From NCBI GenBank assembly GCA_016196605.1, contig JACPXJ010000004.1, positions 1 to 39,915 of the forward strand: 39,915 nt of DNA. Direction: 5' to 3'. The stretch is from Candidatus Nomurabacteria bacterium (GTDB taxonomy: Bacteria; Patescibacteriota; Minisyncoccia; Phycocordibacterales; UBA9973). Both the position numbers and the translations under genes were made by a program. The notes beneath the pieces are model-generated. The model was not told the origin of the DNA and searched no databases. It saw only the letters and a program-made list of their open reading frames with translations. Positions 21,929-23,335 of the stretch are shown here, piece after piece (positions within the stretch are counted from its first letter, which is position 1; each line of letters opens with the position of its first letter).

Positions 21929-23335
21929 ATGCAAAATACAGGAAAAATTAAAAAAGTAATAGGACCGGTCGTGGACGTAGATTTTGGCGGTGAAGCAGGA
22001 AATCTGCCAGACATTTATTCTGCCCTCGAGGTGACGAACGGTCAAAAGAAATTGATTCTTGAGACCGAACAGCATTTGGGCGGCGGAGTGGTGAGAGCTG
22101 TCGCCATGGATACTACTGACGGGCTTTCTCGCGGCATGGAAGTAAAGAATACTAGAGCTCCGATATCTGTTCCTGTGGGTAGCGTCACTCTCGGACGAAT
22201 TTTTAATGTTCTGGGTGAGCCGATCGATGACGGAAAACCCTTAGAACTTGCGGACGCCTTGCTTCCGCAAGGCGGAAGCAAGGCGTCCGCACTCAAATAT
22301 TTGCCTATCCATCGCAAATCTCCGGAATATGTAAAGCAGGCGACAAAAGTGGAAATTTTAGAGACAGGCATCAAGGTCATTGATCTCATCTGTCCGGTTT
22401 TGAAAGGCGGAAAAGTGGGCCTTTTCGGAGGTGCCGGCGTCGGCAAGACCGTGGTCATCCAAGAGCTCATCCACAACATCGCGTCCAATCACGGAGGATA
22501 TTCGGTTTTCGCTGGAGTTGGTGAGCGTACTCGTGAAGGAAATGACCTTTATCATGAAATGAAAGAGTCAGGCGTGCTTCCAAAAGTCGCCATGGTTTTT
22601 GGACAAATGAATGAACCGCCGGGCGCGCGCCTGCGGGTAGCTCTTTCTGGTCTGACTATGGCGGAGCATTTCCGGGACGCAGAAGGCAAGGACGTGCTTC
22701 TTTTTATTGACAATATTTTTCGTTTCACTCAGGCGGGATCCGAGGTTTCTGCTCTCCTTGGTCGTATTCCTTCGGCGGTGGGTTACCAGCCGACTCTTGG
22801 CACAGAAATGGGAATTTTGCAGGAACGTATTACTTCCACCGACAAAGGTTCGGTTACTTCGGTGCAGGCCGTGTATGTGCCGGCAGATGATCTGACTGAT
22901 CCTGCTCCGGCAAATACTTTTGCGCACCTGGATTCGACAGTTGTTTTGAACCGCTCCCTTACAGAGATAGGTATTTACCCGGCAGTTGACCCGCTAGACT
23001 CTTCCTCTACCATTCTCGATCCGAATATAGTTGGCATTGAGCATTATGAAGTTTCCCGCGAGGTTCAGCGCGTGCTTCAGCGCTACAAGGACCTGCAGGA
23101 CATCATCGCCATTCTTGGTATGGAAGAATTATCCGAGCTGGACAAAGAGCTGGTATTTCGCGCCCGTAAAATTCAGAAATTTCTTTCTCAGCCATTTTTC
23201 GTGGCAGAACAATTTACCGGCACAAAAGGGGTTTATGTTCCGCTTGCTGAAACCATTCGTTCATTTAAAGAAATTCTGGAAGGCAAGCATGACAGCAAGG
23301 CAGAGAATGAGTTTTATATGAAAGGCGCACTTTAA
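21929..23335 (+). CDS. atpD: F0F1 ATP synthase subunit beta
   Basis: [12 protein letters not shown] (P-loop), [43 protein letters not shown]. Confidence 0.97.
22250..22290. repeat. 41-nt perfect palindrome (19-bp arms, 3-nt loop) inside atpD
   Basis: GCGGACGCCTTGCTTCCGC-AAG-GCGGAAGCAAGGCGTCCGC. It is in frame and encodes [14 protein letters not shown]. Confidence 0.95.

Follow-up and report, generated by a model that had tools for sequence, protein, structure and literature searches.

A perfect palindrome within the atpD gene

We analyzed a 39,915-nucleotide stretch of DNA from Candidatus Nomurabacteria bacterium (contig JACPXJ010000004.1, assembly GCA_016196605.1), hereafter referred to as the window, in which the gene for the beta subunit of the F1 ATP synthase, atpD, carries a perfect GC-rich palindrome. 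The window holds an atp operon, topA, priA, dprA, and tRNAs, i.e., it is a segment of a bacterial chromosome. The host gene was assigned by its open reading frame (ORF; 21929-23335, plus strand, 468 residues) and its AtpD homology. Within it, the palindrome spans 43 nucleotides (nt) of the plus strand (22249-22291) and reads T-GCGGA-CGCCTTG-CTTCCGC-AAG-GCGGAAG-CAAGGCG-TCCGC-A, that is, TGCGGACGCCTTGCTTCCGC-AAG-GCGGAAGCAAGGCGTCCGCA, with two 20-nt arms (22249-22268 and 22272-22291) that are 100% complementary and enclose a 3-nt loop. An earlier note on this DNA, made from the letters alone, had counted arms of 19 bp, or 20 with the flanking T/A pair, and had placed the palindrome on a codon boundary between the GEPID and PIHR blocks. 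Both descriptions held, with position 22250 being a codon boundary that lies 321 nt (107 codons) from the start of atpD.

The element is much richer in GC than the window as a whole (0.67 vs 0.42), and a fold computation of the element as RNA yielded -42 kcal/mol (z = -9.6). Structures of this kind occurred far more often than composition would predict: three perfect stems of at least 20 bp (loop up to 14 nt) were observed in the 39.9 kb, as compared to 8.5e-7 expected, and stems of at least 10 bp numbered 16 versus 0.77 in Markov shuffles, where the longest stem was never above 12 bp. The earlier note had also pointed to an inner core that recurs in atpG and at 1365-1387. The corresponding pattern, CTTCCGC-N(1-30)-GCGGAAG, indeed had three matches in the window (1367-1385, 21564-21586, and 22262-22278) where 0.00 were expected and 0 of 100 shuffles reached three, and the reverse arrangement of the core occurred twice against an expectation of 0.01; for the hairpin at 1365-1387, however, the likeness extends over the 7-nt core and the loop only. 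The palindrome in atpD is confirmed as real and strongly non-random; the note would have been refuted by palindrome counts at the level set by composition, and those in the window lie far above the shuffles.

The palindrome coincides with extra residues in AtpD

The closest AtpD proteins were 85-90% identical to that of the window by BLASTP (86-93% in the alignment), and the best matches that bear a source name were annotated as Patescibacteria, Paceibacterota, or Nomurabacteria. We aligned the 120 best cluster representatives and measured the length of the loop between IDD and LPIHR. This loop had a basal length of 9-10 residues (e.g., GKAVPTDKK) in 60 of the 120 representatives, versus 11-33 residues in the other 60. 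In the window, it consists of GKPLEL, 14 inserted residues, and LKY, such that subtraction of the 14 residues, encoded by 42 nt (22250-22291; 14 codons) between GEPIDD and LPIHR, returns exactly the basal length. The basal loop was present in five of the eight nearest neighbors (ranked outside the loop), including the nearest relative of all, P0002 (GKAITAEKR), whose DNA (locus L081) has no hairpin at the atpD site. The window's 14-residue insert was found in none of the other AtpD sequences among the 120 representatives. The estimate of about 14 extra residues that had been made in the earlier note was thus matched by the alignment, in which the segment is absent from the closest orthologues, and the peptide is not conserved in AtpD of unrelated lineages. 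Since deletion of the element gives back the basal loop length, neither arm looks ancestral. The two codons that border the insert, CTT and CTC, both encode Leu.

Alignment to the solved structure PDB 2qe7_D left a gap opposite query residues about 102-117, and relative to solved F1 structures the extra residues fall in the short linker that joins the N-terminal beta-barrel to the nucleotide-binding domain. This placement was obtained by PDB sequence alignment; an AlphaFold2 model built from the 120-sequence alignment was unusable, with a mean predicted local distance difference test score (pLDDT) of 46.7. On these comparisons, the segment is a true lineage-specific insertion of exactly 14 codons.

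In-frame palindromes occur in four further genes of the window

The beta subunit is not the only protein affected, as the alpha, beta, and gamma subunits of the F1 ATPase all carry in-frame hairpins within the one operon. The atpG element (21551-21599, plus strand), C-[GCGGAAGTC-G-GACTTCCGC]-AAAGCCAAA-[GCGGAAGTC-C-GACTTCCGC]-G, encodes AEVGLPQSQSGSPTSA in frame and forms a 20-bp stem (-41.4 kcal/mol) in which a unit hairpin is followed by the linker AAAGCCAAA and the reverse-complement unit. Two tandem mini-hairpins, TCCGCC-CAA-GGCGGA-TCCGCC-TCG-GGCGGA, make up the atpA element (19689-19718, plus strand), which provides 10 residues in frame and sits in an alpha-subunit loop that is paralogous to the atpD site. 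All six reading frames are open through each of the atpD, atpG, and atpA elements. Outside the operon, the rsmI gene contains AACCTCACCCC-TTCG-CCCCTCTCCTTA-TC-AAGGAGAGGGG-TT-GGGGGAGAGGTG (24209-24262, plus strand; -40.5 kcal/mol), which encodes LTPSPLSLSRRGVGGEV in frame and belongs to a second hairpin family, F1, that is described below. Last, an M50 (RseP-like) protease gene carries an in-frame element (29234-29289, plus strand; -41.7 kcal/mol) with a 22-bp perfect stem and a 12-nt loop, the arms of which are hairpins too (GAAGGT-CGA-ACCTTC).

To judge insertion status, we compared the genes by tblastn with their orthologues in as many as 14 related loci. Relative to these, the elements add about 16 residues to AtpG (14 orthologues), 11 to AtpA, 13-15 to RsmI, and 14 to the M50 protease (4 orthologues). 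As judged from these alignments, the atpA, atpG, rsmI, and M50 palindromes coincide with lineage-specific in-frame insertions.

Near-identical hairpins recur at non-homologous sites in related genomes

A palindrome comparable to that of the window is present in atpD of L205, an independent ENA metagenome contig. This 43-nt palindrome, T-GCGGAAGTCGGACTTCCGC-AAG-GCGGAAGTCCGACTTCCGC-A, is composed of a unit, AAG, and the reverse-complement unit, and has the length, the AAG loop, the outer GCGGA/TCCGC, and the inner CTTCCGC/GCGGAAG of the window element. The two differ at 10 positions, which form five mirrored pairs with zero uncompensated changes. Because the L205 insertion point lies five codons earlier than that of the window, we take the two insertions to be independent events. 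The arms of the L205 atpD element are, moreover, those of the window's atpG element (19/19), the loops being different.

Identity between non-homologous sites was also observed for the atpA element of the window, which matches, in 30 of 30 nt, an element in the N-terminal loop of atpD in locus L209, i.e., in a different gene and a different loop. The atpD DNA of the window and L209 is 76.6% identical, and the longest run that it shares is 23 nt. A 25-nt hairpin among the small palindromes in miaA of the window (33739-33763, minus strand; AACTTGGTA-GTCGAAG-TACCAAGTT) agrees in 22 of 23 positions with the 23-nt unit of a 42-nt palindrome in L209 atpG; it adds no extra residues relative to solved MiaA structures. 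Palindromes in L209 atpG and L084 atpD have a common scaffold from which they depart by five mirrored pairs and no unmirrored change, and the elements in L082 rsmI, L222 rsmI, and L209 holB form another related series. One element occurs twice within a single genome in L083 (atpG and atpD) and in L221 (atpG and priA). The earlier note had proposed a propagating hairpin family rather than chance resemblance, a proposal that is supported by the L205 scaffold, its 19/19 arms, and the 30/30 match at the non-homologous L209 site.

A modular design underlies many of these elements. Unit hairpins of ~13-25 nt are found both between and inside genes, with near-identical units at non-homologous sites within and between genomes, and many of the long palindromes (42-49 nt) are built from a unit, a short linker, and the reverse-complement unit. 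This arrangement was seen in the window's atpG element, in L205 atpD, in L084, in L209, and in the non-coding spacer between atpD and atpC of the window (23335-23398). The spacer hairpin consists of an AAGGAC-G-GTCCTT unit, a 14-nt linker, and the unit's reverse complement, with the units nested in longer arms that are 88% complementary; its unit, AAGGACCGTCCTT, also recurs in holB of L220 as the core of a hairpin that lies in frame. The focal atpD element is a variant of the same design, in which the arms pair at their ends alone (GCGGA...TCCGC) and the central GCAAGGCG has its reverse complement in the block CGCCTTGC. Genic copies that were compared with orthologues all lay in variable loops, and certain loops are hot spots: the AtpD site is extended in 60 of the 120 representatives, and a gamma-subunit loop near residues 200-225 and one rsmI loop each hold different hairpins across lineages. 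In older copies (L206-L208), the outer stems were kept via compensating C:G to T:A changes and the inner stems had decayed. The phenomenon is much broader than the earlier note saw, with several families and several hot-spot genes.

Some further observations were made in these loci. At the 3' junction of the L205 atpD palindrome (1494-1511), a 9-nt sequence, TTCCGCAGT, is tandemly duplicated (SAVSAV), which suggests slippage or secondary rearrangement at element ends. Residues ~111-128 of AtpG form a second gamma-subunit hot spot, occupied by different hairpins in L209 (9339-9361) and L083 (9333-9380); the L209 copy, ATGTCAAAGAC-G-GTCTTTGACAT, differs from the L220 holB hairpin by one mirrored pair and the loop base. 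Between atpA and atpG, L209 (8615-8926) and L222 (8623-8949), both heavily invaded by hairpins, have an ORF of 103-108 residues that lacks a Pfam match, is 43% identical between the two, and is absent from the window and most other relatives.

One hairpin family is dispersed between and within genes

The F1 hairpin family has the form ACCTCNCCC..CCCCTCTCCTTA-N-TAAGGAGAGGGG..GGGGNGAGGT and is represented five times in the window, namely by the in-frame rsmI element and by four copies between genes. Of these four, the copy at 16344-16366 (CCCTCTCCTTA-A-TAAGGAGAGGG) has imperfect outer arms, two adjacent copies follow atpB (18032-18054 and 18092-18114), and one lies directly after the M50 gene (30163-30187). 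Five F1 palindromes with a conserved outer arm, AACCTCACCCC, were also found at 1907-7240 of L211, a 7.3-kb IMG/VR contig labeled as viral. Some of these are located in frames that stay open for 417 and 538 codons, where they encode PLSFPRRGAGGEV. The F1 family is spread far more widely than the window's clade.

The copy at 18032-18054 overlaps the 3' end of atpB (ORF 17195-18043), with the stop codon TAA in the hairpin loop. It supplies the last AtpB residues (..SAPSP) together with the stop, and may have replaced the native AtpB C terminus.

Hairpins are concentrated between genes and in frame within them

Within the window, GC-rich hairpins occurred at a density of 2.27 per kb between genes versus 0.167 per kb inside genes, a 13.6-fold difference, with non-coding DNA making up 10% of the window. 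More than 20 genic hairpins were examined in the window and 11 related loci, and all of them lay in intact called genes, in frame and free of stops. Across the elements, 69 of 84 reading frames were open, as compared to 51.6 expected. We read the intergenic excess, the intact host genes, and the surplus of open frames as traces of selection. Hairpins with stems of at least 12 bp numbered nine in the window, of which five were inside ORFs, versus just four in-ORF hairpins of this kind in ~1 Mb of control loci from outside the candidate phyla radiation (CPR), these controls being mostly AtpD loci of distant taxa among the matches listed in a genome-collection scan. Similarly, hairpins that end in TCCGC/GCGGA (stems of at least 7 bp) amounted to about 3 per 100 kb in Patescibacteria loci versus 0.4 in the controls.

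Comparison with known palindromic and hairpin-forming elements

The earlier note had likened the atpD insertion to Rickettsia palindromic elements (RPEs). According to PMC10969869, RPEs (Ogata et al. 2000) are imperfect palindromes of ~100-150 bp that fall into ten sequence-defined families with a conserved peptide each, and R. conorii has 44 insertions, nearly half of them in ORFs and in frame. In behavior, the elements described here match them: both kinds of element are palindromic, stand in frame in many unrelated housekeeping genes (here atpA, atpG, atpD, rsmI, and the M50 gene, with more in relatives) as well as between genes, belong to small-genome, host-dependent bacteria, and add a peptide segment that is compatible with protein function (PMC10969869). 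The two differ in that RPEs are elements of an alphaproteobacterial genus (Rickettsia, Rickettsiales), whereas the Patescibacteria elements are 20-56 nt long (30-56 nt for the genic ones of the window), often perfect, modular, mostly low-copy, and variable in sequence. Because size, palindrome perfection, taxon, and family structure all differ, the atpD element is RPE-like in behavior and not a member of an RPE family, a distinction drawn from descriptions of RPEs. The behavioral part of the note's comparison therefore stands, and membership does not: the element is ~3 times shorter, is a perfect palindrome, and comes from a different phylum.

Repetitive extragenic palindromic sequences (REPs) and the bacterial interspersed mosaic elements (BIMEs) that they compose, known from Enterobacteria and Pseudomonas, are mobilized by REP-associated tyrosine transposases (RAYTs) of the Y1 HUH type; they are extragenic by definition, begin with 5' GT[AG]G, and exist as hundreds of copies of one consensus, with a flanking RAYT gene. 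The hairpins described here resemble them in size (~20-40 nt), GC richness, the lack of target-site duplication, and the use of alternating-orientation units with short linkers, the latter being evident in the window's atpG element, L205 atpD, and the atpD-atpC spacer. They differ in that a large number of copies lie within genes and keep the frame (coding sequence holds the focal element and at least four others, though related hairpins are also intergenic), their sequences are diverse, no RAYT was seen in the ORFs scanned, and the GT[AG]G foot is absent, as the elements examined start with TGCGG, CGCGG, TCCGC, TCTGT, ACTTG, or AGACG, among others, and none with GTAG or GTGG. Bypass elements, such as that of T4 gene 60 and the byps of Magnusiomyces mitochondria, are likewise short (27-55 nt), hairpin-forming mobile inserts in essential protein genes. 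These, however, can be out of frame, may hold stops, and have matched take-off and landing codons, whereas here all copies are in frame and stop-free, and the flanking codons match at atpD only, not at atpG or atpA.

Organellar genomes contain comparable repeats, among them the GC clusters of yeast mitochondria. In Volvox carteri, mitochondrial and plastid DNA contain short palindromic repeats of 11-77 nt (mean 50) with loops of 3-5 nt and stems of up to 37 nt (PMC2670323), and such chlorophyte organelle repeats form families with a common core, are often nested, and are confined to non-coding DNA, the Volvox mitochondrial copies being AT-rich (PMC2670323). Our elements match this pattern as nested hairpins of 10-100 nt with 3-5-nt loops in core-sharing families, and differ from it by residing in a bacterial chromosome rather than in mitochondria or plastids. 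[quoted passage not shown] They share with the present hairpins a non-autonomous nature, stem-loop formation, and in-frame fusion with host ORFs. None of their other features was found, which include terminal inverted repeats around a non-palindromic core, target-site duplications when young, a length of 100-500 bp, AT richness, and a relation to insertion sequences (IS): the elements are palindromic throughout, there is no IS in the window, and target-site duplications are absent. A literature search of limited coverage, such that an earlier description is possible, yielded no account of palindromes that lie in frame in genes of Patescibacteria, CPR, Parcubacteria, or Paceibacteria.

Proposed hairpin propagation and its alternatives

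From these data, we consider it likely that the atpD palindrome belongs, as a single copy, to a set of very short, GC-rich, non-autonomous hairpins that propagate as DNA in Paceibacteria-type Patescibacteria. A unit hairpin would give rise to a copy elsewhere with no target-site duplication, probably by a single-strand, hairpin-dependent route that depends on a trans-acting enzyme (REP/RAYT-like) or else on template switching or fold-back synthesis during replication or repair. In a second step, the unit would be duplicated in inverted orientation, and the arms would therefore be perfect and related elements would differ by mirrored changes alone. Selection would purge the copies that break genes, leaving those that are intergenic, or that are genic with a length that is a multiple of 3, stop-free, and in a permissive loop. 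Translation of the surviving genic copies would add 7-16 residues to the proteins, among which G, S, P, and A are often abundant, and the 42-nt insertion in atpD would be a recent copy specific to its lineage. Frame conservation argues for translation of the inserts, because all genic copies are in frame in intact genes and frames are open more often than expected.

Several points weigh against this proposal. No transposase was revealed by Pfam scans, which covered 30 ORFs of the window and a further 10 that were unannotated (7 from related loci), and neither a RAYT nor another candidate enzyme was present in the window, which covers 40 kb of the genome, or in the unannotated ORFs tested. Among 18 elements there was neither a target-site duplication nor a common flanking motif, the flanking direct repeats of 0-3 nt being inconsistent. 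We found no second exact copy of the atpD element, and a scan of viral contigs with its arm gave 0 matches. A metagenome scan with the 17-nt core CTTCCGCAAGGCGGAAG returned at least 120 stretches, of which those analyzed were unrelated and mostly had a GC content of 0.5-0.7. The majority of genic elements have a sequence of their own and are not high-copy, certain extensions of the AtpD loop at this site (e.g., in L220) are non-palindromic, and the in-frame count is partly circular, as hairpins were scored inside called intact genes. Finally, translation of the inserts is argued on frame conservation only, and mobility is deduced from comparisons between sequences, no presence/absence polymorphism within a population having been seen.

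The same absence of target-site duplications and of a transposase in the elements and ORFs tested would fit palindromes that were made in situ, by template switching or fold-back in mutable loops, with no copying between loci and with the sites being mutational or selective hot spots. Unique sequences, arms that are often hairpins themselves with nested symmetry, and the occupation of the same loops by different palindromes in different lineages all agree with such an origin, and inverted duplication would naturally yield mirrored differences. What it does not accommodate are the 30-nt and 19-nt sequences that recur unchanged at non-homologous sites of genomes with only ~76% identity in their atpD DNA, the presence of one element in two genes of a single genome (L083 and L221), the dispersal of the F1 family with conserved outer arms, and the return of the basal loop upon removal of the atpD element, with neither arm looking ancestral. 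We therefore regard in situ origin as an unlikely account of the whole, although fold-back may explain the step from unit to dimer. Selection on the hairpins as nucleic-acid structures in operons, by which their palindromy would be preserved, appears quite improbable as well; they might, for example, stabilize messenger RNA (mRNA), be sites of processing, or cause pausing at domain boundaries and in this way tune subunit stoichiometry or co-translational folding. It would be in keeping with the high stability of the RNA hairpins (-41 to -42 kcal/mol), their occurrence in three consecutive atp genes with more between atp genes, the location of the atpD and atpA copies at a paralogous domain boundary, and mirrored changes that preserve pairing. 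Yet the nearest relatives function without the hairpins and half of the AtpD representatives have the basal loop, carriers differ in position and sequence (as L205 and the window do, by 5 codons), identical units occur in unrelated genes and spacers, and the inner stems have decayed in the older copies of L206-L208. A selected RNA or DNA function is thus not needed, because carriers and non-carriers are closely related and positions vary among carriers; exaptation of individual copies is possible.

Two further explanations concern the sequence itself. A hairpin of -42 kcal/mol obstructs ribosomes, both hairpin-triggered RNA excision and bypass of hairpin-like mobile inserts are known elsewhere, and Leu codons flank the atpD insert on both sides, all of which would be compatible with inserts that remain untranslated, being excised from the mRNA (as in inverted-repeat-triggered RNA excision) or bypassed by the ribosome (as in mitochondrial byps or the T4 gene 60 hop). 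We consider this very unlikely: none of the more than 20 genic elements examined shifts the host frame or brings a stop into it, a restraint that skipped inserts would not need, the atpG and atpA elements lack matching take-off and landing codons, and no gene in the window is split by a hairpin. The contig is metagenomic, only the assembled sequence was seen, and perfect palindromes are a known class of artefact, so that a chimeric inverted repeat made in vitro or in silico, during assembly or amplification, has to be weighed too. Such an artefact can be set aside for practical purposes, because palindromes recur in independent assemblies from three archives (ENA, JGI, and NCBI), where comparable in-frame palindromes occupy the same protein loops; in addition, the frame is kept, the gene is normal on both sides, and related elements differ in a structured, mirrored fashion.

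Beyond the propagation of short hairpins, we tentatively put forward a stronger proposal, namely that these elements constitute an undescribed class of ultra-short self-propagating hairpins, with units of ~20 nt and inverted dimers of ~42 nt, that might spread in a structure-dependent manner within and between Patescibacteria genomes without terminal inverted repeats or target-site duplications, with their symmetry actively regenerated rather than a mere sign of youth, and that would continuously remodel essential proteins (F1 alpha, beta, and gamma, RsmI, RseP, HolB, and PriA) in their surface loops. If this were true, hairpins would be a major overlooked source of the lineage-specific protein insertions that are typical of Patescibacteria, and the DNA-uptake lifestyle of the phylum might aid their spread, with single-strand hairpin or fold-back copying as the candidate route.

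Patescibacteria genomes are tiny and streamlined, and yet essential, conserved enzymes repeatedly carry these selfish-looking in-frame hairpins. If confirmed genome-wide, the findings would mean that the Rickettsia paradigm, in which palindromic repeats give rise to new segments of proteins, reaches into another bacterial radiation, a very large one, where the elements are much smaller. The hairpins would then act as natural insertion scans that mark permissive loops of essential proteins, and would make it possible to study how perfect palindromes of 40-56 nt arise, stay perfect, and are tolerated in replication and translation. They would also be a warning for annotation and phylogenomics, as the inserts inflate alignments and create spurious peptide motifs.

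Additional searches and other features of the window

In the analyzed metagenome matches, the 17-mer CTTCCGCAAGGCGGAAG mostly encoded FRKAE, and the palindrome never extended beyond 19 nt. A scan of viral contigs with the atpG unit gave 0 matches. With the atpA element, it returned one partial match of 21 nt in a high-GC phage contig (L210), which we judged to be due to chance. An 81-residue synthetic peptide query, composed of all three frames of the atpD and atpG/L205 elements, yielded 37 candidates of which none reached E <= 10, matches of such a length being too short for significance in the database searched. At the gathering threshold, an Rfam scan of the window reported four tRNAs only.

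In topA, an imperfect palindrome of 58 nt (38543-38600, minus strand) has 24-nt arms that are 79% complementary and a 13-bp perfect core. Its membership among the hairpins is uncertain; it lies in a naturally variable region of TopA and adds only about 8 residues relative to E. coli TopA. The small hairpin CG-CTTCCGC-AAAGG-GCGGAAG-CG (1365-1387), which contains the inner core common to the atpD and atpG elements, is located in the tail of a recombinase-fragment ORF, downstream of a minus-strand tRNA-Glu gene. Of a large serine recombinase, this ORF (532-1488) matches the Recombinase and Zn_ribbon_recom domains alone and lacks the catalytic N-terminal domain, and its tail overlaps the tRNA-Glu gene (1456-1529), which is on the other strand. 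The ORF is probably what remains of a gene beside a tRNA, for example at an old integration site.

Two copies of an AT-rich imperfect palindrome of ~38 nt, AATCTACCAATTT.AACATATGTTCAAGATAGTAGATT, flank an ORF with a PaaX_M (Cas2-like) domain (6028-6597) at 5958-5997 and 6607-6644, and could serve as operators or mark the two ends of a small cassette. Following a gene with an RRM domain, the hairpin AATCAAAAAACCGCC-TCCC-GGCGGTTTTTTGATT (16287-16320) has T-runs on both sides, resembles a bidirectional intrinsic terminator, and is conserved at the orthologous position in L209 (4579-4612); it looks like an ordinary functional hairpin outside the mobile set. Between the release-factor and RRM genes lies a 375-residue ORF (14575-15702) that has no Pfam match. 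The surrounding stretch at 14-16 kb has a GC content of 0.48, and L084 has an unannotated gene of 364 residues at the same position.

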